Assembly: GCA_016927815.1 (NCBI GenBank)
Contig: JAFGLY010000170.1
Location: forward strand, 4,740 to 68,739
Length of the DNA: 64,000 nt
Reading direction: 5' to 3'
From: Deltaproteobacteria bacterium
GTDB taxonomy: Bacteria > Myxococcota_A > UBA796 > JAFGLY01
Below the pieces are notes generated by a model that was not told the DNA's origin, did not search any database, and was given only the letters and a program-made list of their open reading frames with translations. Shown piece by piece: positions 6,332 to 44,481 of the stretch. The position numbers and the translations under genes are program-made. How positions within the stretch are numbered: position 1 is the stretch's first letter; every line of letters starts with the position of its first letter.

Positions 6332-6361
6332 GTGTGTCTCGGGTCCGTTCCGGGCGCTTCC

Positions 6362-8938: not shown

Positions 8939-9032
8939 CCGATCCTCCTGCGATCGGGGCACACCCTGGTGCCGGCCGCCGCTCCCCTCCCCTACCGGCG
9001 TCGTGCGGGCGCCGCAAGATACCAGGGGCGCG

Positions 9033-10955: not shown

Positions 10956-11163
10956 GGGATGGGAACCTGGGGTGCCGGCTGTCGGCGTCTCCGGTGAGGG
11001 AGAGGAATGGGGAAAGCGGCCGGAAAGGCGGTCCAAGACCCTCCTGGAAACCCGTCCGGCCGGGTGGCGGATCCCGTCGGAGGATCCGCGGGAGCGCCTG
11101 CCCTGGAGGCGTCCGGCGAGGTATCCGGGGGGATTGACCCCGTCAACTGCGGAATCCGCTTGA

Positions 11164-11838: not shown

Positions 11839-12566
11839 GGGCTGCCTCCGTATGGGGGCCGACCCGGCGCGACAAGGCCCCAAGGATCGACGGGTCTGAT
11901 GTGCGCGACCGCGCCCGAGCCCTCTACGCGCGCCTCGCCGTCGAGGGTCGTGACCCGGATCAAGCGATCCACCGTGGGGTCGACCACGACGCCCAGCACC
12001 ACGGGTTCGAGCCCACCCCACCGGACGTCGTAGGAAGCGGCAGGGACCCGTGCGTGCACGTTCCCCTCCACCGAGGCGAGCACCACGCGCTGGGGGATCC
12101 GGATCCAGGAGGCTTCTACGGGACCTCGGACGACCTGCAGCATCGCCTCCTGGGAGGTGAGGCCTTTGGCCTCGATCGATCCGTTTCCCACGACGACCGA
12201 CAGAGAACCGAGTGGGCCGGAGAGGTGGGCCTCGCCCTCGCCCAGGTCGGTCTCGATCGCCACGCCCGCGGGAACGTCGAGCTCCAGGGCTCCGCCGCAC
12301 GGCACGGGGGTCCGGCACACGAGGGCGATCTCGAGGATCTCCGCGTCGCGGTGGTGATGGATCGCGATCGGCGCTTCGGGGCCCCAGGCCTCGGCGTGCA
12401 CCCGGACGGCGTCCGAGCCGCCCGCTCGGACACGGATCTCCCCCGAGGCCCAGCGCACGCGGATGCGATCCACGCGGCCGGCCTCCACGAAGGAGCGATC
12501 GACGTGGAGGCTCCCGCACGCAAGGAGCCCCAGCAGGGTCAGCAGGCTGGAGGGGACGTGCGCCAT
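11766..12566 (-). CDS. Lipoprotein with DUF4097-like (putative adhesin beta-helix) repeats
   Basis: ATG at 12566. Lipobox LLACG. Repetitive G-x-[IV]-x-[VA] strands (ASGEIRVRAGGSDAVRVHA..., GNGSIEAKG..., VEGNVHARV). The 3' end overlaps cmk by 73 nt in another frame. Confidence 0.65.
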   Translation of the reverse strand: MAHVPSSLLTLLGLLACGSLHVDRSFVEAGRVDRIRVRWASGEIRVRAGGSDAVRVHAEAWGPEAPIAIHHHRDAEILEIALVCRTPVPCGGALELDVPAGVAIETDLGEGEAHLSGPLGSLSVVVGNGSIEAKGLTSQEAMLQVVRGPVEASWIRIPQRVVLASVEGNVHARVPAASYDVRWGGLEPVVLGVVVDPTVDRLIRVTTLDGEARVEGSGAVAHIRPVDPWGLVAPGRPPYGGSPCPGSSASPLMAPPHRARAPSHAS

Positions 12567-12652
12567 CGGGTCGTTGCCTCGGGAGTCTGCATCTCAGGAC
12601 ACCGGACGGGGGAGGATGGGAATCCTTCAGGACGAATTTTTCTTAATGTAAG

Positions 12653-12680
12653 AATGTAGATATGTCTATGGACGTGTCAA
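12653..12680 (-). promoter_or_regulatory. Sigma70-type promoter candidate TTGACA-N16-TACATT for the lipoprotein-cmk-rpsA string
   Basis: On the minus strand, TTGACA is at 12680-12675 and TACATT at 12658-12653, inside a conspicuous AT-rich island about 85 nt upstream of ATG 12566. Inverted repeat GAATCTC-N3-GAGATTC lies just upstream at about 12691-12707. Confidence 0.45.
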
Positions 12681-12764
12681 GACTAAGTCGAATCTCCACG
12701 AGATTCCGCGCCTTTCAAGCGTGTAACGACATCCCTCCGGGTCCCGGGTACACGCCGGCCGGCG

Positions 12765-14285
12765 TCAGGCGCCCGAGGCGACCTCGTACACGTGGATGTA
12801 CCGGTTCCCCTCGATGGGTACGCGGCCGAGGTGGGTCGTTGCCAGGGAGAGCTGTTGGCGGCCCACCCCGGTGACCAGCACGCGACCCCGGTGCCCCGAC
12901 AGGTTCATCAGCCAGCGGGCCAGGTAGAAGGGACCCGCCAGCTCCCACCCCTCCTCGGGGCGGCGGGTGTCCGAGCGCAACCGGGCCACGCCGGGTGAGA
13001 CGCCAGCGGAGATCCGGTACCCCTCTTCGACCGCGATCCGGCCGAACTCGAGGGCGGTCGTGACGGCCTGCAGGATCGGCTCGCGGAGTCCTTCCGTCGC
13101 GAGCCAGACCACGAGCAGGGACCGCTCGCCGTGCTCCCAGATCTGCCCTTCGGCGTCTTCCACCACCGCCCGCCAGGTCGCGAGGAGGCTCGGGAGCGTG
13201 CTGCGGGGCGCGGCGATGGAGCGGGGGGGCATGTGCGCCTCTGCGGCGAGTACCACCAGGGCGCCCGGGGGCAGGGTCGGACCGCCGAGGAGGGGCTCGC
13301 GGTCCTTCTCCTCCGGACGGTCGGACCGTTCGAGGACCTCCCGCACGTACCGGGCGAGATCGCCGTGCGTGGCCCGGTGGCCCTCGCGGACCATCAGGAC
13401 CGAGAGGGCGTCCAGCATCTCGGCGGTGGTGGGGAATCGGTCCTTCGGGCGGCGGGCGAGGGAGCGGCGCACGATGGCCTCCAGATCCTCGCTGACCTCG
13501 GGCCGGATCGCGCGGATGCCCGGTACCTCCGCGCGGCGCACCCGGTGGAGCGTCTCGTCCCGGGTACGGGCCTTGAACAGGCGGCGTCCGGTGAGGAGTT
13601 CGAAGAGCACGATCCCGAGGCTGAACTGATCGCTGCTGGCGTCCAGATCCCGGCCCTCCACCTGCTCCGGGCTCATGTAGGCGTACTTGCCCCGCACGAC
13701 CTTGTGGGTGCCCCGGGCCTGCATGGCGGCCCGGCTGATGCCGAAATCGGTGATCTTCACCTCTCCCGCGAAAGACACCAGGATGTTCTGGGGAGAGACG
13801 TCACAGTGGACGATGTGGAGGGGCTGGCCCTCTTCGCCGGTCTTCTCGTGGGCGTACCGGAGGGCCTCGAGCACCTCGCACGCCACGCGCAGGGCCAGGG
13901 CGACCGGAACGGGGCCCATGCGGCGGGCCCGGGCCAGGATGCGGGAGAGATCCAGGCCGTGCACGTACTCCATGGCGATGTAGTACGCCCCGTGGGCCTG
14001 CTCGAACTCGAAGACCTGGACGATGTTGGCGTGGTGGAGCAGGTGCGCGATGTGCGCCTCGTAGGTGAAGAGCTGGATGAACTCTTCGTCTCGGGCGAGG
14101 CTGTCCAGGATGCGTTTCACGACGAGGGTCTTCTGGAAGCCCTCGACCCCGTGCGACCGGGCCCGGTAGACCTCCGCCATCCCGCCTGTCGCGATTTTCT
14201 CCAGGAGGTGGTACTTCCCGAAGGCCATGGGCTGGCTGGGCTCGGGCACGCGTTTCTCCACGCGGGGCTCACCCGTCGTCGGCAC
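12765..14285 (-). CDS. Ser/Thr protein kinase fused to a degenerate class III nucleotidyl-cyclase-like domain
   Basis: Gly loop IATGGMAEVY, VAIK-like LVVKRI, catalytic loop HCDVSPQN, DFG, SPE. The C-terminal 170 aa follow a cyclase-homology pattern (LVVLAAEAH..., RISAGVSPGVARL, GPFYLARWLMNLSGHRGRVLVTG) but lack the metal-binding Asp residues. GTG at 14285 is preceded by AGGAGGAGTTAAG. Confidence 0.85.
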   Translation of the reverse strand: MPTTGEPRVEKRVPEPSQPMAFGKYHLLEKIATGGMAEVYRARSHGVEGFQKTLVVKRILDSLARDEEFIQLFTYEAHIAHLLHHANIVQVFEFEQAHGAYYIAMEYVHGLDLSRILARARRMGPVPVALALRVACEVLEALRYAHEKTGEEGQPLHIVHCDVSPQNILVSFAGEVKITDFGISRAAMQARGTHKVVRGKYAYMSPEQVEGRDLDASSDQFSLGIVLFELLTGRRLFKARTRDETLHRVRRAEVPGIRAIRPEVSEDLEAIVRRSLARRPKDRFPTTAEMLDALSVLMVREGHRATHGDLARYVREVLERSDRPEEKDREPLLGGPTLPPGALVVLAAEAHMPPRSIAAPRSTLPSLLATWRAVVEDAEGQIWEHGERSLLVVWLATEGLREPILQAVTTALEFGRIAVEEGYRISAGVSPGVARLRSDTRRPEEGWELAGPFYLARWLMNLSGHRGRVLVTGVGRQQLSLATTHLGRVPIEGNRYIHVYEVASGA

Positions 14286-14320
14286 CTTAACTCCTCCTGC
14301 CCATCGCCCCCGAGGTCGCC

Positions 14321-15094
14321 ATGCCGCTCGATGCCCTCCTGGCCGTCGTGGATCGACTCAGGGGCGAGGGAGGCTGTCCGTGGGATCGGGCCCAGGATGC
14401 CCGATCGCTGCTTCCCTACCTCGTCGAGGAGACCTACGAGCTGGTGGATGCGGTGGAGCGCAACGACGACCAGGCCCAGGCGGACGAGATCGGAGATCTG
14501 CTCTACCTGGTCCTCCTGCTGGTCCGGATCGGCACGGAGTCCGGCGCGTTCGATCTCGAGCGCGTGGAGCGAGGCATCGTGGCCAAGATGGAGCGCCGGC
14601 ACCCGGGCCTCTTCTCGCGGGCGGACCCGGCTCCGGGCGCAGCCCCGATGGGGTCTCAGGAGGCCTGGGAGACGCACAAGGCCGAGGAGCGCGGCGATTT
14701 CCGGTCGGCGCTGGAGGGCCTGCCGCCCCACCTGCCTGCCCTGCTGCGTGCCCACCGGGTTGCCGAGAAGGCAGCCCGGGTCGGATTCGATTGGCCGGAC
14801 CGCGACGGGGTGCTGGCCAAGGTGGACGAGGAGCGGCGGGAGCTGGACGAGGCGCTGGCCTCCACGGACCCGTCCGCGGTGCGTTGGGAGTACGGCGACC
14901 TGCTGCTCGCGCTCGCCAACCTGGGCCGGTTTCTGGGGGTTCCGGGCGAGGATGCGTTGAGGGAGGCGAGCCGGAGGTTCGAGATCCGGTTCCGGGCGCT
15001 CGAGCGGTTGGCCGCCGCGCGGGGCCTGGACCTCCATCGGACGGATCTCGCGGTCTTGGAGCGTCTCTGGCAGGAGGTCAAGGCCGTCGGTTGA
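14321..15094 (+). CDS. mazG: Nucleoside triphosphate pyrophosphohydrolase MazG
   Basis: Tandem MazG domains: GCPWDRAQDARSLLPYLVEETYELVDA..EIGDLLY and RVGFDWPD...EYGDLLLALAN. ATG at 14321. Confidence 0.9.
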   Translation: MPLDALLAVVDRLRGEGGCPWDRAQDARSLLPYLVEETYELVDAVERNDDQAQADEIGDLLYLVLLLVRIGTESGAFDLERVERGIVAKMERRHPGLFSRADPAPGAAPMGSQEAWETHKAEERGDFRSALEGLPPHLPALLRAHRVAEKAARVGFDWPDRDGVLAKVDEERRELDEALASTDPSAVRWEYGDLLLALANLGRFLGVPGEDALREASRRFEIRFRALERLAAARGLDLHRTDLAVLERLWQEVKAVG

Positions 15095-15593
15095 GAGCCG
15101 GATCCCGTCCGAGGTGGAAGGCGTGGAACCGAGCGTTCTCGTCGCCAGGATCGAGCAGGGCGGCCTGCTGGAAGTGTTCCCCGGCCTCCTGGTGGAGCGC
15201 ACGCAGGCGTCCGGGTGGCCCGTGTACGGCTCCGTCCGCGTCCGCCTGCCGCAGGAGCACCTCCCCGAGCAGAGTGTGCGCCATGGCCAGGAGCACCTTC
15301 TCGGGGGGGTCCTCGAGCCATGCACCGCCGCCCTCGAGGATGCGGATCGCCTCTCGGGCCTCGGCCTCGGCGTCCTCCAGGCGACCCGAGGCCAGGAGAA
15401 GGTGAGCCTTCTCCATCCGGGGTTCCGCGAGGCGGGGCTCGGCCAGCAGGATGGCGGCGAACGCGTCGAGGGCCTCGTCGCCACGGCCATCGCGGACCAG
15501 GGCGCAAGCGGCCAGGAAGCGGTCGCCCAGGGCCTCGAGGTGCTCCTCGGGCGCCGTGAACAGGTCGGGGGGGTCGTCGGATGTGGGGTTCAC
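15078..15593 (-). CDS. Small TPR-like protein (last gene of the seven-gene operon)
   Basis: Helical repeat content (ALDAFAAILLAEPRLAEPRMEKAHLLLASGRLEDAEAEAREAIRI). The proposed GTG at 15593 overlaps the upstream kinase stop (GTGA). The track extension to 16316 is rejected. Confidence 0.55.
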   Translation of the reverse strand: MNPTSDDPPDLFTAPEEHLEALGDRFLAACALVRDGRGDEALDAFAAILLAEPRLAEPRMEKAHLLLASGRLEDAEAEAREAIRILEGGGAWLEDPPEKVLLAMAHTLLGEVLLRQADADGAVHGPPGRLRALHQEAGEHFQQAALLDPGDENARFHAFHLGRDPALNRRP

Positions 15594-16309
15594 GGGGACT
15601 CCGAGGGGGGATTCGAGGGGTAGTGGAGGGTGAACGAGGTGGAACCGGGTCGGGACGAAACCTCGATGCGACCGCCGGCCCCCTCCACGAGGCGGCGGGC
15701 GATGGCGAGCCCCAGACCCGTCCCCCGTCCCGGAGGCTTGGTGGTGAACCAGGCGTCGAACACCCGGGGCAGGTCCGCGGGCGGGATCGTGGGTCCGTCG
15801 TTCTCGACGCGGATGCGCACGGATGCGGGCACGGTGTCGACCGTGACCCGGATCCGCCCCGAGGCCTGCCCCTCCAGGGCGTCGAGGGCGTTCTGCAGGA
15901 GGTTGACGACCACCTGCTGGAGGACCTGAGGGTTGCCGTGGATCACGGGGAGGCCCGGGGCCAGGTCCAGCGTGCAGGCCACGCCCTGGCGTGCGGTCCG
16001 AGCCTCGAGCGTGGCCAGGGCAGCGCAGATCGGCTGATCCACCGGGAAGGGGACCTCCCAGTCGCCCGAGTGCTGGACGAGGCCCCCCTGCGTGGAGAGG
16101 ATCCGCTCCATGCGGTCCACCTGCTCCAGTGCCGTCGCGACGGTCGCGGGGTCGGGTGGCACCAAGGCACGCTCCTGGAGCAGCTGGAGGAGGGCCTTGA
16201 CCGCGAAGAGCGGCTGCCTCAGCTCGTGGACGAGCGTGGCCGAGAGGAGGCCCAGCTCGGCCAGCCGGCCCACCTCCATCCAGGTCCGATCGTCGCGGGT
16301 TTCGCTCAT
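15590..16309 (-). CDS. Soluble sensor-less histidine kinase (HisKA + HATPase_c only)
   Basis: H-box LVHELRQPL, N-box VVNLLQNALDA, G1-like ENDGPTI, F/G2 FDAWFTTKPPGRGTGLGLAIARR. No TM or sensor domain. ATG at 16309 overlaps the upstream stop (ATGA). 239 aa. Confidence 0.8.
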   Translation of the reverse strand: MSETRDDRTWMEVGRLAELGLLSATLVHELRQPLFAVKALLQLLQERALVPPDPATVATALEQVDRMERILSTQGGLVQHSGDWEVPFPVDQPICAALATLEARTARQGVACTLDLAPGLPVIHGNPQVLQQVVVNLLQNALDALEGQASGRIRVTVDTVPASVRIRVENDGPTIPPADLPRVFDAWFTTKPPGRGTGLGLAIARRLVEGAGGRIEVSSRPGSTSFTLHYPSNPPSESP

Positions 16310-19300
16310 GGCGCACCCACCAGGCGGTTGTCCACGGTCACCTCCACCTCGCAGGCCTCCCCCAGGTTCAGGTACGCATCGCAGGCCGCGATCTGCAGCA
16401 CGTAGGCCCCGTTGTCCACGACGATGCCGTCCTGGCCCACACCGTTCCAGATCACCTCGTCCGCGTCCGCGGCTGCGAGGGTCCACCAGGTGTACACCGC
16501 GTCGCCCGCCTCGTCCGTGACCGCCAGGCGCCACCCGTACGGCATGGCGCTGGCGACGACCTCCACGTGGACCTCGTCCGCCTCGGACGTTCCGGGGACG
16601 TCGTCTCCGTCCGGACGAAAGACCGCAGTGTCCGGCGTGCAGTCCAGGACGTCGGGAGCGGTGTCCTCCACCGCTCCGGTGTTCGTGCGGAAGGCCCCGG
16701 TGGTCCCCGACCAGGCGCCGTCGAGCCGGTTTCCCGCGGCGTCCCGCACCTGGGACGACACGACGATCTCGTACACGTCGAGAGAGAGGTCGATGGCGTC
16801 CTCGAGCGTGGCGGTGGCCTGGGTGGCATCGGCCGAGAGCGAGATGTCCGCGATCGCTCGGGCGCCGTAGCTGTCCGAGACGAGGATGCCCGCCGAGGGA
16901 TCCGTGAAGGACGACGACCACATGGCCTCGCTGAACGTCACGGTGACGGTGTCCGTGACGTCGTCGGACGTGCCCCGGGGATCGAGATCCAGGACCACGG
17001 GGCGGGCATTGTCGCCCTGGGCCTCTACCGTGGCCGCACCGATGGCGGTTCCCGTGCCGTTCCCGGCCAGGAGCGTCGCCGTGCCGCCGAAGGCCTCCAG
17101 CGCCACGGACCATGAGACCGTGGCCTCGCCCCCGGCGTCGAGCGTGACCGCGAGCCCGATCCCCGAGGCAGAGGCTCCCGACGTGTACTCGCCGAGGTCT
17201 GCCCGGACGAGCAGGCTGCCGCCGGAAGCCACGTCGCCCGAGCAGTCCCAGGCCGCCAGGTCCACGGGGGTGCTCCCCGTGGTGGCGCTGCCCACGGTGC
17301 GCGTGGTGAAGGTCGGCACCACGGACACCGGCCCGGCCGGCTGCCCGTCGTCGTGGGCCACGTACACGACGGCCTGGGCCAGGTCCCCGCAGGCCTCGGG
17401 CGTGAATGCCGCGACCTCGACCTGGACGGCGACGGGTTCCTCCCACGCGAAGAGGGGGGTGGCACTGGACCCCCGCGTGGTGTTTCCGGCGGAGTCCCAG
17501 AAGCTGTACGTGAGCGAGCTTCCCGTGCTGCCCGAGGCGTCCAGCATGGCGGACGCGCTGCCGGACGCGAGGCAGAGGACGGCCTCGGTCGCGCCGTCCA
17601 CGAGCAGGTCCGCCGTTACGCCACAGTCGTCCTCCAGGACGTCGATGGGCGTGAGAACGCCCATGATGGCGCTCGTTTCGGCCACGGCGATGAGCGAGTC
17701 CGCGACCCCGGGCGTGTCGAACAGGATCTCGCCGCTGGCCTCGCCATCGGTCCAGCTGTCCAGCACCACCCCGGGGGAGAGGGCGAACTCGCTCGTCACC
17801 GACACGACCTCGTCGAAGGTGAGAACCACGTTGCCCCACGCGTCGACCGCCTGGACCCGAACGGTGTAGGGAACGTCCAGGAACGCCCACGGGCGATCGA
17901 GCGAGATGGACAGTGAGGCGGGGTCGGAGGGCACCACGTCGAACGGATCGGAGGTGCCGAGCGAGGCGGCCCCCTGGCTGGCGGTGATCGTGTCGTCCTG
18001 CAGGGCGACGGTGATCGTGACCTCCACCTCGGCGTACCCATCGGGATCCAGGGTGGCCGTCAAGGGGAGCAGCGACCCGGTCTCGTCCTCCAGTTCCACG
18101 TACGGGTCGCTCTGCACGACGTAGGGATTGCCCCACGCATCCGTCCCCTCCAGCCCCACCGGGAAGGAGGCGCCCGCGGACACCTGGATGCCCGGTTCGA
18201 GATCGAAGGAGACCACCGCGAGATCTCCGTTCTGCACGATGAACGGGGTGGTGGTGCCGCTCACGCTCGGATCGAGGTCGTCCACCGACACGGTGAGGGT
18301 CTCCGCGTCCGTGGCCAGGGTCGCGATGCAGGAGAAACGACGGCTGCCGTCCGCTCGCATCACTTCGTCCCAGGTGCAGGTCGGCGTCCCCACACGTCCG
18401 CGGAAGCGATAGCCGTCCACGGATGGATCTGTAGAAATACCGTTTTTCAGGGCATCCTGTGGGGTGACGTCCAGCAGGAAGGGCTCACCGGCCGAGACCG
18501 GTCCCGGGCCCATGCCCACGAGGATCTTCGCCAGCGGACCCGGGCTCACCCCGAAGACCCCGGAGATGCCCTCCAGCCGATCGCTGCCCCGGGCTTGGAC
18601 CTGGTCGTCCGCTCCGGCGATCCATGGCCAGGCGACACAGACCTGGATGCCCTCGGAGAACCCCGGGCAGTCCTGCTCTCCGAGGCCGGCTTCGGGATCG
18701 AGGCCGCCCAGCGTGTCGTACAGGTCCAGTCGGACGTCGCTGCCATAGTCCAGGACCCGGTTCTCCCAGGCGTCCCGGGCGGTGACCACCACGTAGAGGG
18801 GGCTTTGCCCGGCTTCCACGGTGCTCGGGTAGACGGACACACCGTAGGACGAGGGCTCTGCGGGCTCCACCTGGAACCCCGGGCTGGATCCGGAGGTGGT
18901 TCCCGAGGCGAGGATGCGGTTCTCCTCGCAGGCATCGCCGGTGGCGCCGGTGACCGCGATGTCCAGGTCCAGGCGGCCGACCACGTCGACCGTCTGGGAA
19001 AAGCGCCCGCACGCCTCGGTCAACGAGAAACGGCCGATGGCCTCCTCCAGGAGGTTGCCGTAGATGTCGACCATGCGCAGGGTGACCGGGAACGGCTCCC
19101 CGGCGACCGCGGAAAACCCCAGGTACGGAAGGTCGATCGAGACCCCGGCCAGCTCGCCGGGAGTGACGGCGATGTCCACGGAGTCTCCCTCGACGACGGA
19201 GTCCGGCACGGCCGGCTCGACCTCGAGGGTGAGGATCTCGGGGGTCGAGTGGGTGAGCGACACCCAGCCGTGGCCGCTCTCGTCCAGGAACCCGACGACG

Positions 19301-19881
19301 ACCACGCCCTCGTCCACGCTGCCCTGCAGGGCGTCGTCGAGACCCGAGGCGTCCACCTCGAGACCGTGAAGTCGACTCGCAGCGGTGAGGGTCAGGACGA
19401 CCCGGAGAGGCTGGAACACCGGCCGATCCTCGGGGTCCAGGAGGTCGAAGGCCACGAGGAACGGGATGTTCACGTCGAACACGATGCTGTCGAGGTCAAA
19501 GGCGAGGTGGTCCGCTCGGCTGTCCGTGACGGTGAAGGCGTCCGCGAGGACGGCGGACAGGCCCGCGGGCGTGGTGACCCGGAGGGCGTAGAGGCCGACG
19601 GGCAACCCCTCGGGCACGACCGCGGCCAGGGACTCGTAGGAGTCCAATTCCACGCCTTGGAGTGCGTAGGTGCCCTCGGCGCCCTCGAGGCGGACCTGGA
19701 ACTGGCGGTCCAGGCGGCCGCCCTCGTCGCTCGAGGACAGCTCCATCGAGGGGTAGAAATGGCGTCCCCGCACCACCACGTCGGTGCGCTCCCCGTTGTA
19801 TCCCCAATCTGGTTCGGCCCCCTGCACCTCTGGATCCGGCAGGGGCGTCGAACACGCGACGAGGAGGAGGAGGAACGGCAA
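16306..19881 (-). CDS. 1191-aa lipoprotein built of Ig-like (Big/PKD/SbsA-like) modules with a FlgD-Ig-like C-terminus
   Basis: TTG at 19881 preceded by GGGAGA. Lipobox LLVAC. At least five modules carry a D-[AI]-[WY]-[GE]-N motif (VDIYGN, RDAWEN, TDAWGN, VDAWGN, degenerate QDALKN). Other modules: LTYSFWDSAGN (PKD-like), VTVTFSEAMWSSSF (SbsA-like), C-terminal WNGVGQDGIVVDNGAYVLQIAACD (FlgD-Ig-like). Confidence 0.8.
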   Translation of the reverse strand: MPFLLLLVACSTPLPDPEVQGAEPDWGYNGERTDVVVRGRHFYPSMELSSSDEGGRLDRQFQVRLEGAEGTYALQGVELDSYESLAAVVPEGLPVGLYALRVTTPAGLSAVLADAFTVTDSRADHLAFDLDSIVFDVNIPFLVAFDLLDPEDRPVFQPLRVVLTLTAASRLHGLEVDASGLDDALQGSVDEGVVVVGFLDESGHGWVSLTHSTPEILTLEVEPAVPDSVVEGDSVDIAVTPGELAGVSIDLPYLGFSAVAGEPFPVTLRMVDIYGNLLEEAIGRFSLTEACGRFSQTVDVVGRLDLDIAVTGATGDACEENRILASGTTSGSSPGFQVEPAEPSSYGVSVYPSTVEAGQSPLYVVVTARDAWENRVLDYGSDVRLDLYDTLGGLDPEAGLGEQDCPGFSEGIQVCVAWPWIAGADDQVQARGSDRLEGISGVFGVSPGPLAKILVGMGPGPVSAGEPFLLDVTPQDALKNGISTDPSVDGYRFRGRVGTPTCTWDEVMRADGSRRFSCIATLATDAETLTVSVDDLDPSVSGTTTPFIVQNGDLAVVSFDLEPGIQVSAGASFPVGLEGTDAWGNPYVVQSDPYVELEDETGSLLPLTATLDPDGYAEVEVTITVALQDDTITASQGAASLGTSDPFDVVPSDPASLSISLDRPWAFLDVPYTVRVQAVDAWGNVVLTFDEVVSVTSEFALSPGVVLDSWTDGEASGEILFDTPGVADSLIAVAETSAIMGVLTPIDVLEDDCGVTADLLVDGATEAVLCLASGSASAMLDASGSTGSSLTYSFWDSAGNTTRGSSATPLFAWEEPVAVQVEVAAFTPEACGDLAQAVVYVAHDDGQPAGPVSVVPTFTTRTVGSATTGSTPVDLAAWDCSGDVASGGSLLVRADLGEYTSGASASGIGLAVTLDAGGEATVSWSVALEAFGGTATLLAGNGTGTAIGAATVEAQGDNARPVVLDLDPRGTSDDVTDTVTVTFSEAMWSSSFTDPSAGILVSDSYGARAIADISLSADATQATATLEDAIDLSLDVYEIVVSSQVRDAAGNRLDGAWSGTTGAFRTNTGAVEDTAPDVLDCTPDTAVFRPDGDDVPGTSEADEVHVEVVASAMPYGWRLAVTDEAGDAVYTWWTLAAADADEVIWNGVGQDGIVVDNGAYVLQIAACDAYLNLGEACEVEVTVDNRLVGAP

Positions 19882-19899
19882 GGGGTCTCCCAGAGGAGT

Positions 19900-22410
19900 C
19901 TAGAACAGGACGCGCCATCCTGTCACGACCGAAAGGCCGCCGACGGTGCCTTCCCAGGCGAGCGCGTCCTCCCCGATCGTGGCGTAGAGGTAGCGCAACT
20001 CGAAGCCGAACTCGCCGGTGCCGGCTCTCCAGCCGGTGCCTGCGAAGAGGGTCAGCCCGGGTCCGGACACGCCGTGCAGGCGGACGGTGGTCTCGTCGCC
20101 GAAGGAGGCGGCGGCCGTCCAGCCGATTCCAGCCAGACCGGCACCCAGCCAGGACGCCCGGAGCCCCTGCTCCTGCCGGGCGAGGCCGGCGAGCGTGACG
20201 GGCAGGAAGACCTGTCGTACGGAGATCTCCTCCCCGGTGGCGTGGTCCTCCAGGACGGCGTCCGCTCCGTAGACTCCGGTGGAGGTGCGCAGCAGGATCC
20301 GCTCGGAACCGAACGGAAGGCGCATCTCCAGGTTGACGTCCGCGGTGGGTGAGGCCACGGAGCCGAGGTTGGACAGGAAGCCGCCGGTGATCCCGAGGGC
20401 GGCCCTCAAGGGACGGGGTGCGATGCGCAGCGTGGTCGAGGCGCCGAACGAGCCCTCCTGCCCCTGTACGGACAGGAGGACGTCTCCTGCCCGAAAGCCC
20501 GCGGGCGGCGTGTACCAGGCTTCGTAGGAACCGTCCGGGCGGATCTTCAGGGGGCTCACGGTGCCCACGTCCGCGCGTACCGTCGCATGGTCGTCGGTGA
20601 CGGCGCTGCCCGTTCGATCCTGCAGCCGGACGAGCACGCGTGCGGACGCCGAGGGTCCCGGGTGGAGCACCGAGGGCTCGGTAGCGATCGAGACCCGGCG
20701 CACGCGACCGGCCAGGATGGGGACCTCCACCACGGCCTCGACGTCGGGGGCCGACACATCGGCTGAGGGACCGGGGTCCTCGGGGAGATACGGCTCCCGG
20801 GCCTCCAGCAGGCCTGTCCGGGCGTGGAGGATCACGAGAGGGACGTCCGCGGGCAACGGGAACGTGGCACAAGCCCAGCCCCGGGCGTCGGTCGTGGCCG
20901 TCGATTCCGGACCCCGATCCAGAGCCAGGGCCACCCCGATCCCCTCGAGGGGCCGTCCTCGCCCGTCCAGAACCCGTGCATGCACGGGCAGCCGACCTCC
21001 TTCGGCGGTACCGTGGGTGACCTGGAGGGAGGCCGGGGGACCCGTGCCGGGGGCGATCGCCAGCCTCGCCCAGATCCGGTCCGATCCTTCGGCCGCTGCG
21101 GGTGCTCCGTTGTAGTCCGCCCGGATCGTGTGGGCGTCGGAGGACACCACGCGCACCTCGCCGAGGTCGGCGCCGACCTCGACCGCGTCGAGGGCGAGTC
21201 GGTCCCCGAGACGGTCCTCCAGGATGGCCTGGACCTGGGCCATCGGGAAGTCGGCGGACAGCACCTCCGGGTAGACCTTCAGGTGGAGCGTGTGGGGAAT
21301 TCCCTCGCCAACGGGCAGTCGGACCTGTGCTGCGGCGAGATCCCCTGGCAGCTCGCAGGACACGCGCAGGTACAGGAACCGTTCCTCCGAGGGCAGCGAG
21401 GGCAGGAGGCGCCAACGCCCGGGCCCCTCGGAGACCAGCGCGGGGCGTCCGCCGGGCACGGTCTCGCAGACGGGCAACGCCGCGGTCCACGGCGCCCCCG
21501 CAAAGTCCACGACGGCCAGGTGCACGGGGAACACCGCCCCACCCTGGAGGAGCACGGGTGCGGACAGGAGGGCCACGAGGGGGCGAGGGTCGCGCTGGAG
21601 GCTCACCGTGGTCGTCTGGACGTTGCCGAGATCGTCCTCGATGCGCATCGTGGCCGTGGCATCGCCGGGTCGGACCGGAAGGGTCGCGACGGCCTGCCCC
21701 TCGGCATCCGCCACGAACGGCCCGAACGTCCTCCCGCCGAGCGTCAGGTGCACCCGGGCGCCGGGTTCCGTCTGGATCGGGATGCGGGGGCGCCCTGCGA
21801 GGTGCACGACCCCCCAGGCCGGAGGGGCCACCGGGCGGCGAAGGTCGAGGAGGCCCACGAGCACCACCCGCGGAAAGCGCTCCTCGAGCGGTTCCAGGAC
21901 CACGTCGACCCCATCGGCCGTTCGCTCCACGGAGAGGATTCGGCCCTCGGTCGCGTAGGCCTGGAGGACATCGGGATTCACGGGTTCGGCCGAACGGAAC
22001 GGGACCCTGATGGGGCGATCCGCTCCGGCGGTGGCCTCCATCCGCACGGGACCCTCGAACGTGGGTACCACGGGGTCGCCCAGGGGGACGACCAGGCGGG
22101 TGGAGGTGTCCGGATCGGTGTGGACCGTGAAGGTCACGCTGCCCGAGGCCCCGGGCGGCGCGAGGTACCAGAAGGCATGGACCCCCGGTCGCCTCGCGCC
22201 CGTGCCCGGCGCGACATCGCCGATGGAGGCCCGGAGCGTGGGCCGGGGTGTGGACAGGGCCCGACCCGCTTCGTGGAGGACCACGTAGACGCGGTTCTCC
22301 ACGCCCGGTACCAACGGTCCGTCCGGGGTGACGAGCGCGACCTCTGCCCGGGCAGCCCGAGGGAGCCAGCCGAGGAGAAGGATCAGGAGCAGGACACGGA
22401 AGGCGGCCAC
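19900..22410 (-). CDS. 836-aa exported protein: N-terminal Ig-like repeats plus a C-terminal outer-membrane beta-barrel-like domain
   Basis: GTG at 22410. Signal peptide AAFRVLLLILLLGWLPRAARA. Ig-like modules such as VHARVLDGRGRPLEGIGVALALD...TTDARGWA and ARVLVRLQDRTGSAVTDDHATVRADVG. The last ~190 aa have alternating amphipathic strands ending GLSVVTGWRVLF, an aromatic terminal residue typical of OMPs. Confidence 0.7.
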   Translation of the reverse strand: MAAFRVLLLILLLGWLPRAARAEVALVTPDGPLVPGVENRVYVVLHEAGRALSTPRPTLRASIGDVAPGTGARRPGVHAFWYLAPPGASGSVTFTVHTDPDTSTRLVVPLGDPVVPTFEGPVRMEATAGADRPIRVPFRSAEPVNPDVLQAYATEGRILSVERTADGVDVVLEPLEERFPRVVLVGLLDLRRPVAPPAWGVVHLAGRPRIPIQTEPGARVHLTLGGRTFGPFVADAEGQAVATLPVRPGDATATMRIEDDLGNVQTTTVSLQRDPRPLVALLSAPVLLQGGAVFPVHLAVVDFAGAPWTAALPVCETVPGGRPALVSEGPGRWRLLPSLPSEERFLYLRVSCELPGDLAAAQVRLPVGEGIPHTLHLKVYPEVLSADFPMAQVQAILEDRLGDRLALDAVEVGADLGEVRVVSSDAHTIRADYNGAPAAAEGSDRIWARLAIAPGTGPPASLQVTHGTAEGGRLPVHARVLDGRGRPLEGIGVALALDRGPESTATTDARGWACATFPLPADVPLVILHARTGLLEAREPYLPEDPGPSADVSAPDVEAVVEVPILAGRVRRVSIATEPSVLHPGPSASARVLVRLQDRTGSAVTDDHATVRADVGTVSPLKIRPDGSYEAWYTPPAGFRAGDVLLSVQGQEGSFGASTTLRIAPRPLRAALGITGGFLSNLGSVASPTADVNLEMRLPFGSERILLRTSTGVYGADAVLEDHATGEEISVRQVFLPVTLAGLARQEQGLRASWLGAGLAGIGWTAAASFGDETTVRLHGVSGPGLTLFAGTGWRAGTGEFGFELRYLYATIGEDALAWEGTVGGLSVVTGWRVLF

Positions 22411-22467
22411 GGCGCCATCCTATCGCACTGCCGCCAGACCCCCGGCTCCGATGGGGCCGCGGACCCG

Positions 22468-23328
22468 TCAGTAGCGGACTTCGATCGTACTGGGGGGCGC
22501 CTTGGAGTCGCGCGTGAGGGAGGTCTCCACCCGTTGCGTCCGGCCCAGTGGATCCACGGCCACCACCTCCACCGGGTGTGTCCCCTCAGACAGCGGGATC
22601 GTAGCCTCGAACGTCCCGTCGCTGGCCGCGATGACCGTCATCCAGCGGCCCGGGGACCCCACCCGGACCTCTGCCCCGGGATCGGTACGGCCTCGCACCG
22701 TCACCTCGGCCTCCCGGGTGCGCGTCTGGTCGGGCCAGGCGACCTGCAGCAGCAGCGACTCTGGAACGGGGGCGAGGCGGGCCGACCCGTCGGGTGCGAG
22801 GCTCAGGCGCTGCCCTGGGTCGAGCCGGTCCAGGTCGGGTACGCCCCGAACCACCACGGTGCCCCGCTCAATCTCCGTCGCCAGGGCTCCGCCCTTCCCT
22901 ACCCCCACGGCGAAGTCCGCGTCCTGGGCCACCAGTTCGCGTCCGCGGTTCACGATGCCGAGGCTGCCCCGACCGGGGCGTACCGTGGCCGTGACCCGGC
23001 CGCCGTCCAGCTCCATGCGAACGCCCTCGCGCGTCACGCCGAGCACGCGCACCGTGGACCCCGGGTGGACGACGATGGTGTTCGATCCTCCGAAGGAAAC
23101 ATCCGCCCGTCCGTTCTCGGAGGTTTCGAGGTGCTCGGACGGGCTCAAGGCCAGGCCGGGCCGGGCCTCGGACCGGCTGCCGCCGGCCGTGATGTGGACC
23201 ACGTCCCCCTGTACGGACTGGACCAGCAGCGGATCCGCGGGCTCGGGCCCGAACAGGAGGCGGTACCCGATCCAGCCCGCCAGGAGGACGAGCAGGAGGG
23301 CAAGGAGGGTCTTGACCGCGTCGCGCAT
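22468..23328 (-). CDS. Membrane-anchored FecR-domain protein with C-terminal Ig-like domain
   Basis: N-terminal TM helix LLALLLVLLAGWIGYRLLF. FecR-like core GRADVSFGGSNTIVVHPGSTVRV...ELDGGRVTATV. C-terminal beta-sandwich-like EVTVRGRTDPGAEVRV...DGTFEATIPLSEGTHPVEVVAVD. ATG at 23328. Confidence 0.65.
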   Translation of the reverse strand: MRDAVKTLLALLLVLLAGWIGYRLLFGPEPADPLLVQSVQGDVVHITAGGSRSEARPGLALSPSEHLETSENGRADVSFGGSNTIVVHPGSTVRVLGVTREGVRMELDGGRVTATVRPGRGSLGIVNRGRELVAQDADFAVGVGKGGALATEIERGTVVVRGVPDLDRLDPGQRLSLAPDGSARLAPVPESLLLQVAWPDQTRTREAEVTVRGRTDPGAEVRVGSPGRWMTVIAASDGTFEATIPLSEGTHPVEVVAVDPLGRTQRVETSLTRDSKAPPSTIEVRY

Positions 23329-23331
23329 GGA

Positions 23332-25143
23332 TCAGGCCCCGGGCAGATCGACCAGGTAACGGGCGGGTCCACCGGGCACCGGCTCCGTGAGCGCGGCCCC
23401 CTGCTCGGCCAGGACCCGTCGCGACAACCAGAGGGACATCCCGGACGCGAGCCAGTCGTCGCGCGAGGCGCCCGCGGGGGCCTCGGGGGCGTCGAGTTCG
23501 AAGGCGAGGCGGGCCCTGCCCTCCACCGATTCGCCCTGGACGACTATAGTCCCGCCCGACGGCACCAGGGCGCGCAGGCTGGTGAGCAGGCCGGCGAGCG
23601 CTTGTCCGAGCCGGACCCGATCCGCGTGGACCCGGAGCGCGCGCGGTACGTGCCCGAGGCGAAGACCCACTCCGCGCTGCCGGAAGGAAGGGGCCACGAG
23701 GCTCTCGACCTCCGAGACCAGGACGCGCAGATCCACGGGCGCGCGTTCGTCGATTTCCGTGGCGTCTTTCGTGAACGAGAGGAGGGTGCGGACGATGTCG
23801 GCGCAGCGTGCCGCCTCGGACTCCATGGCGGCCAGGAGGGCATCGTCCGGTCCGCCCCGGGTACGCTGGCGGAGGATCTGGGCGCTGCCGAGGATGCCGG
23901 CCAGCGGGTTGTTGAGCTCGTGAGCCACGCCGGCTCCGATCTCGGCCACGGCCGCGAGCTTGCCGGACTCGACGAGGCGAGCCTGGGCTTCCCTGAGCTC
24001 TCGCGTGCGATCTTCGACCCGCTCCTGCAGTTCGACGTTGAAGGCTTCGATCTCCTGCCTCTGGCGCAGGATCTCGTCCCGATTGGCCTCGAGGTGGCTG
24101 GACATGGTGTTGAAGACGCTCCCCAACTCCGCCAGCTCCCGGATCGGCCCCGTGACCACGCGGCGATCGAGCCTCCCCTCCCCCACGTCCCGAGCAGCCT
24201 GGGCCAGGTCCCGGACGGGCTGGTGGATCCTGCGCGCTGCGTAGTGGCCGACGATGGCCGACAGGCAGAGGGCCAGGAGCGCGATGTAGGCTGCCTGGTT
24301 CCGGAGGGTTCGGAGGGCTCGGATGGCGTGGCGGGAGGGCTCCACCACCACGGCCAGCCAGCCGGTGCAGGGAACGGTCGCACTCGCGCCCTGGATCCGC
24401 TCCCCGTCCTCCAGCTCGTAGCTGACGTTGTTGATGAGGGGACTGCCGAGGAAGAAGGTGAACCGGTCCGGCCGGATGAGTTCGGGCCCGCCGTGGGCGA
24501 AGAGGCTCCCCCCGGCATCCAGGAGACCGACCGCGACCCCCTCGTCCACGAGCCCGTGGAGATGCTGCACCACGGGCGCGAGCGAAAGCTCCACCGCGAC
24601 GAGCGGCCGCTGGGGGACCGGATCGGCGAGGACGATGGGGACCACCGGGAAGTCGCCGTCCGGGGGCTGGTACGGGACGCCCATGGCCGTCGCGCCGCTC
24701 CGGACCGCCGACCAGACGGGCAAACGCTCCCGGAACGCCTCGTACCGGGCCCGGGAGACGGACTCGTGGGAACCCGTGGGATCGTCCCCGGCCTCCAGGC
24801 TGGCCATCTGGCTGTGGGCGAGGTCCGTTCCCTCCGGGGTCAGGAGGCTCACGATGTTCACGTGGTCGAACTGGTTGTAGACCAGGCGCTCGAACCCGAC
24901 CCGCTCCGCGTCGTCCAGAAGGTCCAGGTCGAAGGTGCTGCGCATCAGGCGGATGCCCTTCAACTGGCCCGTCATCCACGTGTCCGCGAACGTCGCCAGG
25001 TTGGAAGCCTTCAAGGGCTGGATCTCGGAGGCCTGTCTCGACATGGACCGGATCGTCTCGCGCGTCGCGGCGAATCCGAGCAGGAGGAGCGGTGGGACGG
25101 CCGCGCCGGTGATGCCGAGGACGAGGAGCGTCCGCAGGCGCAC
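23332..25143 (-). CDS. Sensor histidine kinase: 2 TM helices, ~270-aa periplasmic (Cache-like) domain, HAMP, HisKA, degenerate HATPase_c
   Basis: TM1 LLVLGITGAAVPPLLLLGFAA, TM2 AAYIALLALCLSAIVGHYAA. HAMP RDLAQAARDVGEGRLDRRV. H-box GVAHELNNPLAGI. The CA domain lacks the N-box Asn (LAGLLTSL), the DxGxG box (ELDAPEAP) and the GxGLG box (ASGMSLWLS). GTG at 25143. Confidence 0.85.
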   Translation of the reverse strand: MRLRTLLVLGITGAAVPPLLLLGFAATRETIRSMSRQASEIQPLKASNLATFADTWMTGQLKGIRLMRSTFDLDLLDDAERVGFERLVYNQFDHVNIVSLLTPEGTDLAHSQMASLEAGDDPTGSHESVSRARYEAFRERLPVWSAVRSGATAMGVPYQPPDGDFPVVPIVLADPVPQRPLVAVELSLAPVVQHLHGLVDEGVAVGLLDAGGSLFAHGGPELIRPDRFTFFLGSPLINNVSYELEDGERIQGASATVPCTGWLAVVVEPSRHAIRALRTLRNQAAYIALLALCLSAIVGHYAARRIHQPVRDLAQAARDVGEGRLDRRVVTGPIRELAELGSVFNTMSSHLEANRDEILRQRQEIEAFNVELQERVEDRTRELREAQARLVESGKLAAVAEIGAGVAHELNNPLAGILGSAQILRQRTRGGPDDALLAAMESEAARCADIVRTLLSFTKDATEIDERAPVDLRVLVSEVESLVAPSFRQRGVGLRLGHVPRALRVHADRVRLGQALAGLLTSLRALVPSGGTIVVQGESVEGRARLAFELDAPEAPAGASRDDWLASGMSLWLSRRVLAEQGAALTEPVPGGPARYLVDLPGA

Positions 25144-25149
25144 GGGAGG

Positions 25150-26319
25150 TCAGGCGTCCGAGGGGAACCGCATCCGGAACACCGTGCCGCCCGCCTCGGC
25201 TGCGTCCACCTGGATGGTCCCGCGGTACTTGGTGACGATGCGGTAGACGATGTTGAGGCCCAGGCCGGTGCCCTTGCCCGGCTGCTTCGTGGTGTAGAAG
25301 GGGTCGAACACGAGCGACCGGGACGCCTCTGGGATGCCCGGGCCGTCGTCTTCCACTTCGGCCCACACGTGGCCGGAGTCCCCCCCGCACCGGATGCGGA
25401 CGTGGGCCGGCAGGCCCGTGTCCCTCTGCGGTGCGAGTGCCTCGATCGCGTTCTTGACCAGGTTGACGAACACCTGCTGGATCTCGTTGGTCCGAGCCTG
25501 GACGAAGGTCTCGGGTGCGAGGTCGAGCGCGATGTCGATGCCTCGCACGTCGGTCGAGCGTTCCACCAGCCTCACGGCATCCTCGATGACGTGCGGGAGG
25601 TCCACCGTGGTGAGGTACTCGGACCGGGCGGCCCGGCTGTATCCCGAGAGATCCTGCACGATGCTCCGGATGGTCTGGCAGTACTCCACGATGTCGCCAG
25701 CGTAGCTGCGGACGAGGTCCGGGCGGTCCTCCTCCAGGATGGCCTCGGCCAGGCCCAGGATGCCGAACAGCGGGCTCGACACCTCGTGGGCGATGCCCGC
25801 GGCCAGCGTACCGATGCCCGCCAGCTTCTCGGACTGGATGAGCTCGGCCTGGAGGCGCCGCGTCTCCTCGAGGCTCGACTCCAGGGCCTGGTTCTTGTCC
25901 TGCAGGTCGATGAGAAGGTCGCGGTTCTCCCGAACGATGCGCTGCTTCTCGAGGGCGCGGCGCACCTTCTTGCGGATGTCGAAGACGTTGTTGAGCGGCT
26001 TGAGCACGTAGTCGAAGGCATCCAGCTCGATGGCCGCCAGCGCCGTCTCCAGCGAGGCGTACCCGGTGAGGATGATCACCTCGGCATCCGGGTTGACCTC
26101 CTTCGCCACCTTGAGGAGATCGAGGCCGTTCATGTCCGGCAGGTTCTTGTCCGTCAGGAGGATGTCCACCCCCTTCTCCTGAAACACGTCTCGGGCCTCC
26201 GATCCCGTGGCCGCGAGCGTGAGCCGGTAGGGCTCGTCCTCGAAGACCGCCTTGAGGATCTGGAGGATGACGGGCTCGTCGTCAACGATGACGAGGTGCG
26301 GGGCCACGTCGGCGTCCAT
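25150..26319 (-). CDS. Hybrid response regulator-histidine kinase (REC-coiled coil-HisKA-HATPase_c)
   Basis: REC: LVIVDDEPV...ILLTDKNLPDMNG...VLKP. H-box AGIAHEVSSPL. Intact N, G1 (DDGPGI), F (FDPFYTTK) and G2 (GTGLGL) boxes. ATG at 26319 preceded by CCGGAGGGCCC. The track extension to 26658 is rejected. Confidence 0.9.
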   Translation of the reverse strand: MDADVAPHLVIVDDEPVILQILKAVFEDEPYRLTLAATGSEARDVFQEKGVDILLTDKNLPDMNGLDLLKVAKEVNPDAEVIILTGYASLETALAAIELDAFDYVLKPLNNVFDIRKKVRRALEKQRIVRENRDLLIDLQDKNQALESSLEETRRLQAELIQSEKLAGIGTLAAGIAHEVSSPLFGILGLAEAILEEDRPDLVRSYAGDIVEYCQTIRSIVQDLSGYSRAARSEYLTTVDLPHVIEDAVRLVERSTDVRGIDIALDLAPETFVQARTNEIQQVFVNLVKNAIEALAPQRDTGLPAHVRIRCGGDSGHVWAEVEDDGPGIPEASRSLVFDPFYTTKQPGKGTGLGLNIVYRIVTKYRGTIQVDAAEAGGTVFRMRFPSDA

Positions 26320-26414
26320 GGGCCCTCCGGGGCGGGGGGCAGCGTAGCACGACCCGGGCCTCGCTGCCGCGCCCCCCTCCCCCGGGGGGAGGCTGGCGGC
26401 CGGCCTCTCGCGGT

Positions 26415-26442
26415 TTGACACCCCAGCAGGAGGCACTATGCT
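26415..26442 (+). promoter_or_regulatory. Sigma70-type promoter candidate TTGACA-N16-TATGCT
   Basis: TTGACA at 26415-26420 and TATGCT at 26437-26442, 55 nt upstream of ATG 26498, in the divergent gap. Confidence 0.45.
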
Positions 26443-26497: not shown

Positions 26498-27049
26498 ATG
26501 CGCGTTCTCCTCCTCGCAGCGCTCCTCCTGGGTGGCTGCGCCGCCCGGCACGGCAGCTCCGCCGCCGGGAGTCCCGAGGGTCCGGTCCGCCAGCAGGCCG
26601 CTGCCGACGGGACCCTCCTCGTCCAGGTGGACGTCAACAACGACGGTCGGTCGGACATCTACAACCACTATCGTTCAGAGGGCGAAGCCCGGATCCTCTC
26701 GAAGAAGGAGATGGATCTCAACCGGGACGGCCGGCTCGACGTCTGGTCCTGGTACACAGGGACGGGCATCCTGGAGAAGGAGGAGATGGACGGAGATTTC
26801 GACGGCGTGGTGGACTGGGTGGACCACTACCAGGGCGGACGGCGCGTGATGAGCGAGGTCTCGACGCAGGCGACCGGACGGTTCGACCTCTTCAAGTACT
26901 ACGAGAACGGGCAGATCCGTCGCAAGGAGCGCGACACCAACGGCGACGGCAAGGTGGACTTCTGGGAGTATTTCGACGACCAGGGCCACGTCAGCAAGGT
27001 AGGCTGGGATATCGACGGGGACGGCCAGATGGACATCCGCGAGGAGTAG
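26498..27049 (+). CDS. Lipoprotein with five D-x-[ND]-x-DG Ca-binding-like repeats (FG-GAP/EF-hand-like)
   Basis: ATG at 26498. Lipobox LLGGC. Repeats DVNNDGRSDIYNHY, DLNRDGRLDVWSWY, DGDFDGVVDWVDHY, DTNGDGKVDFWEYF, DIDGDGQMDI. Confidence 0.7.
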   Translation: MRVLLLAALLLGGCAARHGSSAAGSPEGPVRQQAAADGTLLVQVDVNNDGRSDIYNHYRSEGEARILSKKEMDLNRDGRLDVWSWYTGTGILEKEEMDGDFDGVVDWVDHYQGGRRVMSEVSTQATGRFDLFKYYENGQIRRKERDTNGDGKVDFWEYFDDQGHVSKVGWDIDGDGQMDIREE

Positions 27050-29398: not shown

Positions 29399-29429
29399 GG
29401 AACGGACCTCCCGGGGGTTTGGAACCTCC

Positions 29430-29457
29430 ACAGTAATCCGGGCCCCGGCTCCGTCAA
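29430..29457 (-). promoter_or_regulatory. Sigma70-type promoter candidate TTGACG-N16-TACTGT upstream of grpE
   Basis: Minus-strand TTGACG at 29457-29452 and TACTGT at 29435-29430. SD GGGAGG lies in the short leader. I found no CIRCE element. Confidence 0.4.
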
Positions 29458-29530
29458 TGCTGCCCGAGACGCCGTTTCCGGCACCGGCGGCCGCGGTTAC
29501 CTTCCGCCCCCCCTCCAAGGAGGAGCCGTC

Positions 29531-44437: not shown

Positions 44438-44481
44438 GGTGCCTCCCTCGGGCGTGGTATCCTGTAGGACGAGGGTGCGAC

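Follow-up and report, generated by a model that had tools for sequence, protein, structure and literature searches.

Only a few routes are described by which bacterial signals cross from outer to inner membrane; they include TonB-dependent transducers working with FecR and a sigma factor, the RcsF-IgaA pair, and the lipoproteins NlpE or QseG working with kinases. In the Rcs system, a relay protein of the inner membrane receives the input of an outer-membrane lipoprotein and a barrel protein and governs a relay of several kinases; the kinase domain of one member, RcsD, is inactive, and signalling is sensitive to the periplasmic distance between the two membranes. In the NlpE-CpxA pair, a lipoprotein acts on an inner-membrane histidine kinase. 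The kinase QseE is reported to be activated by QseG, a lipoprotein of the outer membrane (PMC12691602). Furthermore, comparative genomics has uncovered a Campylobacterota cluster, otherwise uncharacterised, in which genes for a CHASE2 adenylate cyclase, a phosphodiesterase and a TPR protein accompany that of a FecR-domain outer-membrane protein (PMC9239204). Here, a cluster of envelope and kinase genes is described in a window of 64,000 nucleotides (nt) from a Deltaproteobacteria bacterium placed in Myxococcota_A (assembly GCA_016927815.1, contig JAFGLY010000170.1, positions 4,740 to 68,739 of the forward strand); the window is the whole stretch of DNA that was analysed, and positions are counted from its first letter. 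The cluster is real, strongly conserved and uncharacterised, and belongs to uncultured Myxococcota. It is best read as a two-component sensor coupled to accessory proteins, with a mechanism predicted from sequences and structural models.

Organisation and conservation of the cluster

Seven genes, labelled A to G in transcription order, lie on the minus strand. Gene A (25150-26319) encodes a soluble hybrid kinase with REC, HisKA and HATPase_c domains. The product of gene B (23332-25143) has two transmembrane segments, a putative diverged dCache_1 domain, HAMP and HisKA domains and a degenerate ATP-binding domain, while C (22468-23328) encodes an N-terminal transmembrane segment, a FecR domain and a C-terminal immunoglobulin-like (Ig-like) domain. 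Genes D (19900-22410) and E (16306-19881) encode a protein with a signal peptide, seven Ig-like domains and, in its structural model, a C-terminal eight-stranded barrel, and a lipoprotein of 1191 amino acids with about eleven Ig-like domains and a TTG start, respectively. They are followed by F (15590-16309), for a soluble HisKA-HATPase_c protein without sensor domain, and G (15078-15593), for a small cytoplasmic TPR protein. At about 70% GC, long spurious open reading frames (ORFs) are frequent in the window; all seven ORFs display the codon-position GC of real genes, with values of 0.84-0.94 at the third position (GC3) and low values at the second (GC2). Adjacent genes are separated by 6 nt (A/B), 3 nt (B/C), 57 nt (C/D) and 18 nt (D/E) or overlap by 4 nt, as ATGA at E/F and GTGA at F/G, and these small gaps and overlapping stop and start codons indicate co-translation. 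Terminator-like sites between 14000 and 27500 are not enriched over shuffled sequences (three observed, 2.3 expected), and all three fall inside coding sequence and none between genes. The cluster is bounded upstream by U, the divergent neighbour of A, and downstream by a convergent MazG gene.

A preliminary description of this DNA had reported seven co-directional genes at these positions, which the codon-position GC pattern and the spacing bear out. The domains that it named are likewise recovered by Pfam, although the FecR match of the C protein in the window falls under the cut-off. Its statement that the cluster lacks an output domain also stands, as the Pfam scan yields no DNA-binding or enzymatic output domain in the cluster or in the nearby genes scanned, and the sole REC domain is fused to the kinase of A.

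In a word-index search covering 5.8 billion proteins, homologues of D, E and C numbered only 16, 21 and 15, respectively. The D family is sizeable, given the 353 matches below an E-value of 1e-30 which a HMMER search with the D profile found among representatives at 50% identity; among the 150 matches listed, most span the profile end to end and measure about 800-850 amino acids. A scan of one genome per species identified 26 loci, all in metagenome-assembled genomes (MAGs), mostly labelled Myxococcota, and none in an isolate. Gene order was mapped in related loci (L001-L037) with hidden Markov models of A to G and U built from seven loci. In nearly every locus of sufficient length (about 30), the order is U, in opposite orientation, followed by A, B, C, D, E, F and G, and it holds down to about 29-35% protein identity. 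Synteny in relatives, whose absence the preliminary description had named in advance as speaking against its proposal, is thus present, and the conserved unit, as delineated by these comparisons, is U plus A to E, usually with F.

Within-lineage synteny is nevertheless weaker evidence than it looks, since the housekeeping flanks ManC, SpoU, GrpE, MazG and Pkinase are also conserved in many loci. The close relatives are all MAGs of one group, and one locus (L028, 1-12082) contains D-E-F-G without A-B-C and with unrelated genes upstream, the cluster being either split or misassembled there. The clustering might on these grounds reflect nothing but the conserved genome order of one lineage, with A, B and F functionally unrelated to C, D and E. 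This explanation is improbable in view of the co-translation indicated by the gene junctions and of the flanks, which differ in L007, L008, L025 and L027 around a core that stays intact (in L025, about 2 kb are inserted between C and D, at 7812-9974). It is further opposed by three distant variants, each of which combines three or four of B, C, D and E with other flanks and in another order.

The first of these variants, L035, is a low-GC metagenome contig whose module (5412-18166) encodes, in order, an intact dCache_1-HAMP kinase, a C-like protein, a HisKA-only protein of 99 amino acids, a REC-HD-GYP protein carrying HDIGK and GYP motifs, two single-REC proteins, a triple-REC protein, a D-like and an E-like protein. 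L036 contains a C-like protein, a B-like kinase and a hybrid kinase, with a divergent D-like gene. The third, L037, stems from an Archangium sp. assembly and encodes at 7738-14190 a D-like protein (WP_309893796), an E-like protein of 764 amino acids (WP_309893795) and a B-like kinase, which is an intact dCache_1 kinase (WP_309893794); the contig ends right after the kinase, and a C-like gene may lie beyond this end. Accordingly, L035 has all of B, C, D and E, L036 has C, B and D, and L037 has D, E and B, while U and G have no counterpart in the distant variants. Since B, C, D and E are kept together across genomes, flanks and orders while their cytoplasmic partners change, they appear to be functionally linked rather than collinear by descent. 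The REC domains of all five receiver proteins of L035 strongly match the REC profile of A, with independent E-values (i-E) of 1e-25 to 1e-43, which suggests that B-type sensors talk to A-type receivers. By analogy, the REC-HD-GYP protein hints at turnover of cyclic di-GMP (c-di-GMP) as an output of the module family.

Envelope proteins, membrane sensor and soluble kinases

The AlphaFold2 model of D was built from 14 homologues and has a mean predicted local distance difference test score (pLDDT) of 87.4. Behind a signal peptide ending in AxA, it exhibits seven beta-sandwich Ig-like domains (about residues 23-663) and then, with no linker helix, eight long antiparallel strands (about 670-836), the final residue being Phe. 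An aromatic residue at the C-terminus is the usual outer-membrane beta-signal, and a terminal Y, F or W is found in 108 of the 139 full-length representatives of the D family. In addition, the D homologue of L035 matches the Pfam family OMP_b-brl, an OmpA-like eight-stranded family. By this model, an eight-stranded barrel of OmpA type serves D as its outer-membrane anchor. As a barrel with an even number of strands has its two ends on the periplasmic side, and one of eight strands offers no pore to a passenger, the modelled Ig array of D is most likely periplasmic and not surface-exposed. The preliminary description had left the scaffold "surface- or periplasm-exposed"; for D, the eight-stranded barrel and the aromatic end speak against the surface and favour the periplasm.

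The E gene starts with a TTG codon behind a Shine-Dalgarno-like GGGAG, and the lipobox Cys of its product is kept in all seven aligned orthologues. The AlphaFold2 model of E, obtained from 19 homologues with a pLDDT of 89.0, is all-beta and comprises the Ig-like domains mentioned above, with Big_5 and FlgD_ig types at the C-terminus. Thirteen Cys residues occur beyond the lipid-modified one; across the 19 homologues, ten of these never vary and another two hardly do, a pattern that fits an extracytoplasmic location. Lengths are fixed in both families, with 820 ± 21 amino acids for D (139 full-length representatives) and 1191 ± 18 for E, as they are for C (277-289 amino acids). Unlike adhesins with variable repeat numbers, the three proteins therefore seem to have a defined architecture.

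Foldseek comparison of D and E with the structures in PDB revealed only generic Ig arrays, including the MG domains of alpha-2-macroglobulin, titin, gp210 and invasin. As the TM-scores are about 0.1, the alpha-2-macroglobulin matches are counted among the generic ones; a protease trap of that type was rejected on finding neither a CxEQ thioester motif nor a helical domain in D or E, the two models being all-beta and almost free of helix. A weak relative of D, P0016, is encoded in an unrelated context beside a VWA/DUF58 protein.

In C, the hydrophobic transmembrane segment occupies residues 2-28 and leaves no cytoplasmic domain, and the orthologues are built likewise. The C protein of the window scores 18.5 bits against Pfam FecR, under the cut-off of 24, whereas FecR (PF04773) is matched by all 17 family members tested, with a best E-value of 1.2e-10. 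The family profile further matches the structures 4M0N/4M0H of FecR-like putative anti-sigma factors (E-value 7e-4) and, marginally, that of PupR (6OVK, E-value 0.05). Its C-terminal Ig-like domain is of the Big_6/Glucodextran_B type and matches Bap-type Ig domains. C is thus, to judge by its sequence features, an inner-membrane-anchored protein that combines a periplasmic FecR domain with one Ig domain and lacks a cytoplasmic part.

The FecR domain of C, together with the invasin-type Ig domains and C-terminal barrel of D, would also be expected if the locus were a divergent Fec-type signalling system or an export system for an autotransporter or adhesin whose missing parts are encoded elsewhere in the genome. 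That explanation is very improbable. No Pfam match to Plug, TonB_dep_Rec or STN occurs in D or E, nor in the rest of the seven proteins, and neither Sigma70_r2 nor Sigma70_r4 is matched in the seven proteins or their immediate neighbours, leaving the cluster proteins without a sigma factor of the extracytoplasmic function (ECF) kind. A cytoplasmic anti-sigma segment is missing from C. Eight strands make up the barrel of D, as opposed to 12 (or three times four in trimeric ones) in autotransporters and 22 in TonB-dependent receptors, and D was for this reason, and for its missing linker helix, rejected as an autotransporter.

The membrane sensor B spans the membrane at residues 3-27 and 284-303 and exposes about residues 28-283 to the periplasm. 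Pfam yields HAMP and HisKA only and no HATPase_c match. LLTSLRA stands in place of the N box, DxGxG is missing, and DDWLASGM(S/G)xW replaces the G2 box; the loss of the N, G1 and G2 boxes is common to all seven aligned orthologues, in which the phospho-acceptor His with its adjacent ExxN (HELNNPL) is retained. On these motifs, B is not a working kinase and instead represents a conserved pseudokinase with a decayed ATP-binding (CA) domain. The E/D-x-x-N/T motif beside the His is linked to phosphatase activity in HisKA kinases. The cluster hence offers a natural case of a histidine kinase turned pseudokinase beside soluble kinases.

Pfam does not detect dCache_1 in the B protein of the window even at E ≤ 1. 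However, the profile of its periplasmic region aligns end to end with the kinases of L035 and L037 (E-values 9e-44 and 4.5e-28), in which Pfam finds both dCache_1 and an intact HATPase_c; the periplasmic domain of B is accordingly classed as a putative diverged dCache_1. Domains of this type usually bind small ligands, so that B may have a ligand of its own and not rely on the Ig scaffold alone. The earlier proposal that the signal is relayed from the Ig scaffold is kept with this addition.

Homology to dCache_1 kinases raises the alternative of an ordinary relay in which a small molecule binds the putative dCache domain of B, D and E being structural or adhesive proteins of the envelope that serve as targets or cargo and not as inputs. 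Regulators often adjoin the genes that they control, and the exclusively generic Ig matches of D and E would suit such a role. Yet the cluster contains no DNA-binding regulator that would make D and E local targets, and C, a membrane-anchored FecR-type protein which has no other recognisable function, is always encoded between the sensor and the D and E genes. Homologues of B, D and E moreover stay together in L035 and L037, as do C and D with B in L036, despite changed partners or order, and the fixed domain number of D and E is unlike that of adhesins. A ligand relay of this kind is accordingly considered unlikely, if worth keeping in mind.

A and F carry intact catalytic signatures. A matches Response_reg (1.7e-24), HisKA (5e-08) and HATPase_c (1.6e-24) in Pfam, and its receiver residues DD, D, T and K as well as the kinase H, N, G1, F and G2 boxes are kept in seven orthologues. 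It is the best-conserved kinase of the cluster, with 57% core identity between the window and L007 as opposed to 37% for F. The ATG at 26319 is taken as its start, given that orthologues begin equivalently and that the longer ORF from 26658 would overlap U. F matches HATPase_c (3.6e-26) and HisKA (8e-09) and retains all catalytic boxes, being intact in five aligned orthologues. It is reduced to a remnant of 148 amino acids in L004 and absent in L008, L024 and L029, a distribution which identifies it as an accessory kinase, lost or decayed in some of the genomes compared. F was ruled out as the detached ATP-binding half of B, since its core is closer to that of A (35% identity) than to those of B-like kinases (29%) and it is missing in several genomes. 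The phospho-acceptor His together with N, G1, F and G2 boxes that marks the HisKA family is found in A and F, which are predicted to be catalytically intact, and not in B. Of the three kinases counted in the preliminary description, A and F are hence upheld and B is not.

Gene G, the neighbour U and the surrounding genes

G matches TPR_2 and TPR_19 in Pfam and is translationally coupled to F in the window. Its orthologues adjoin the cluster in most loci; the gene is absent in L004 and inverted in L007 and L027, which makes its membership doubtful. On the opposite strand, an ORF of 220 codons (14961-15623, plus strand; GC3 0.85) runs antisense to G and has no Pfam match. The TPR matches and conserved orthologues identify G as the real gene of the two. 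The original count of seven genes is thereby uncertain at its downstream end, where G is also missing from some loci, and is extended upstream by U as a conserved neighbour.

U (26498-27049, plus strand) encodes a lipoprotein with a LLGGC lipobox and five to six DxDxDG repeats resembling calcium-binding motifs, with weak matches to EF-hand_5 and FG-GAP_3. The inner ATG at 26498 agrees with the starts of its orthologues, one of which adjoins A in all A-containing loci except L015 and L025. From this conservation, U may be an eighth member of the system.

The intergenic region between A and U contains two promoter candidates. Upstream of the ATG of A by 21 nt, the motif TGCTACGCT (26341-26349, minus strand) resembles an extended -10 element and is identical in the window, L001, L002 and L014 (four of five aligned genomes), the surrounding intergenic region being poorly conserved; it is a candidate extended -10 element of the operon, with a putative promoter function. 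Ahead of U, a sigma-70-like promoter candidate (26415-26442, plus strand) consists of TTGACA, a 16-nt spacer and TATGCT and agrees with the consensus at 10 of 12 positions; its TTGACA block is invariant in five aligned genomes. A sigma-54 promoter (TGG-N9-TGC) was sought in the same region with no match; the TGGCAC present there has the wrong spacing.

Elsewhere in the same 64 kb, the minus strand carries several genes of envelope biogenesis, for a DsbA-like thioredoxin protein extended at length at its N-terminus (7618-8832), the lipoprotein diacylglyceryl transferase Lgt (43649-44488) and DsbD (51353-53764), as well as a gene for a protein of 1754 amino acids made up mostly of TPR repeats (34539-39803). 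The GrpE ORF (28736-30463, minus strand) is 575 codons long, with the GrpE domain confined to the last 150 residues, and overlaps a DUF4340 gene (29531-30790, plus strand); the true GrpE start probably lies far downstream of the first start codon.

Proposed mechanism and comparison with known systems

The preliminary description had suggested an envelope-spanning sensory cluster, and this idea holds as a prediction, with a sensor and a FecR-like protein in the inner membrane, a barrel protein in the outer membrane and a lipoprotein. The idea that a single trans-envelope sensor, composed of B, C, D and E, feeds A is, in our estimation, an evenly balanced proposition. The Ig arrays of D and E, being fixed in length, would reach from the outer to the inner membrane and contact C. 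Seven Ig domains at the general domain size of about 4 nm each would span about 25-30 nm. Acting from the periplasm or the membrane, C would then shift the conformation of B, much as outer-membrane partners act on FecR, IgaA or QseE, while B may also bind a small ligand in its Cache domain. Presumably unable to autophosphorylate, B would set the phosphorylation of the A receiver through its DHp helix (the His with its adjacent phosphatase-type ExxN), most simply as a signal-gated phosphatase and otherwise by phosphotransfer with A or F or by docking to either. Phosphatase action of B on the A receiver is a tentative idea and, on present evidence, somewhat doubtful. The receiver would in turn switch the kinase of A, which would phosphorylate a response regulator encoded elsewhere, with F providing extra phosphoryl input where present. 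Owing to the analogy with L035, an HD-GYP phosphodiesterase of c-di-GMP would be the first candidate for this unlinked output. The signal would most likely be the state of the envelope (the integrity of the outer membrane, the width of the periplasm or contact) and not a nutrient.

A more specific version holds that the Ig rods of D and E, fixed in the outer membrane by barrel and lipid, respectively, serve as a periplasmic ruler or mechanical link which is read by the sigma-free FecR domain and passed on to the Cache-type pseudokinase, leading to dephosphorylation of the REC-kinase. This version is speculative and rather unlikely to be right in all its parts. Were it true, the FecR domain would be a general relay from outer to inner membrane, and the Myxococcota would possess a dedicated protein machine for sensing envelope geometry or cell contact.

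Several points, in addition to the conserved flanks and the locus without A-B-C, weigh against a trans-envelope sensor. The functional linkage of its parts rests mainly on the three distant variants, and the presumed contacts among B, C, D and E derive from co-occurrence and predicted topology. E, to judge by its sequence, may face either the periplasm or the surface. A soluble ligand could be sensed by a dCache domain independently of D and E, and these two could be regulated products instead of the input. Lastly, sequence alone is compatible with B as a phosphatase, a phosphotransferase or a docking partner.

Literature on FecR, kinase, Ig-like and Myxococcus themes yielded no description of such a system, and NCBIfam returned only generic kinase-core matches far under their cut-offs. 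The early view that the locus cannot be assigned to Fec-type signalling or to another characterised system is therefore confirmed by Pfam, NCBIfam and literature for the systems compared. As in Fec signalling, a periplasmic FecR-type domain on a single-pass inner-membrane protein is encoded beside an outer-membrane beta-barrel gene, and the signal is presumed to run from the outer to the inner membrane. In contrast to Fec, the cluster has neither a TonB-dependent transducer (with plug, 22 strands and STN) nor an ECF sigma factor; C lacks the cytoplasmic anti-sigma domain and has a histidine-kinase-like sensor as its inner-membrane partner, and the outer-membrane protein is an eight-stranded anchor with seven Ig domains.

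The likeness to Rcs is one of general arrangement, without homology, and lies in an outer-membrane lipoprotein and barrel, an inner-membrane relay, an inactive kinase-like member and a possible dependence on periplasmic distance. The best NCBIfam score for RcsC is 81 bits against a cut-off of 920 and reflects the generic kinase core, and no HPt, RcsF-type or IgaA-type matches occur in the cluster proteins in Pfam or NCBIfam. Unlike Rcs, the cluster contains no HPt and no RcsB-type output, and long Ig arrays stand in place of a small lipoprotein. With QseG-QseE (PMC12691602) and with NlpE-CpxA, it shares a lipoprotein which acts, in the cluster by proposal, on a histidine kinase of the inner membrane from its periplasmic side. 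It differs from both pairs in having up to four candidate accessory proteins (C, D, E and possibly U) and a membrane sensor without a working ATP-binding domain, and no components are homologous.

The Campylobacterota cluster provides a precedent for FecR-domain proteins acting outside sigma/anti-sigma pairs, and it is the only comparable sigma-free use of FecR found in the literature (PMC9239204). There, too, the companions of an envelope protein with a FecR domain are a membrane sensor enzyme and a TPR protein, and not a sigma factor. The sensor, however, is a CHASE2 cyclase with cyclic AMP (cAMP) as output and not a dCache kinase-like protein, and Ig-array proteins are missing. With LvrA/LvrB, A shares the REC-HisKA-HATPase architecture without output domain, and it aligns over its full length with the NCBIfam model hybrid_RR_LvrB; its score of 137 bits against a cut-off of 500 indicates that A is not an orthologue of LvrB. 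To our knowledge, no envelope accessory proteins have been described for Lvr.

None of the D family matches comes from a studied organism. Archangium is a genus with cultured members, and the simpler D-E-B version in the Archangium sp. assembly may thus make the idea accessible to experiment. By analogy, the function of the cluster most resembles the outer-to-inner membrane relays that work through accessory proteins, namely Rcs, NlpE-Cpx and QseG-QseE. To these described routes it would add another, with a FecR relay devoid of an anti-sigma part, two Ig proteins of constant length anchored at the outer membrane and a membrane sensor that has retained its phospho-acceptor helix beside a degenerate ATP-binding domain, and it is the conjunction of the sigma-free FecR relay, the constant-length periplasmic Ig rods and the conserved pseudokinase that is notable.

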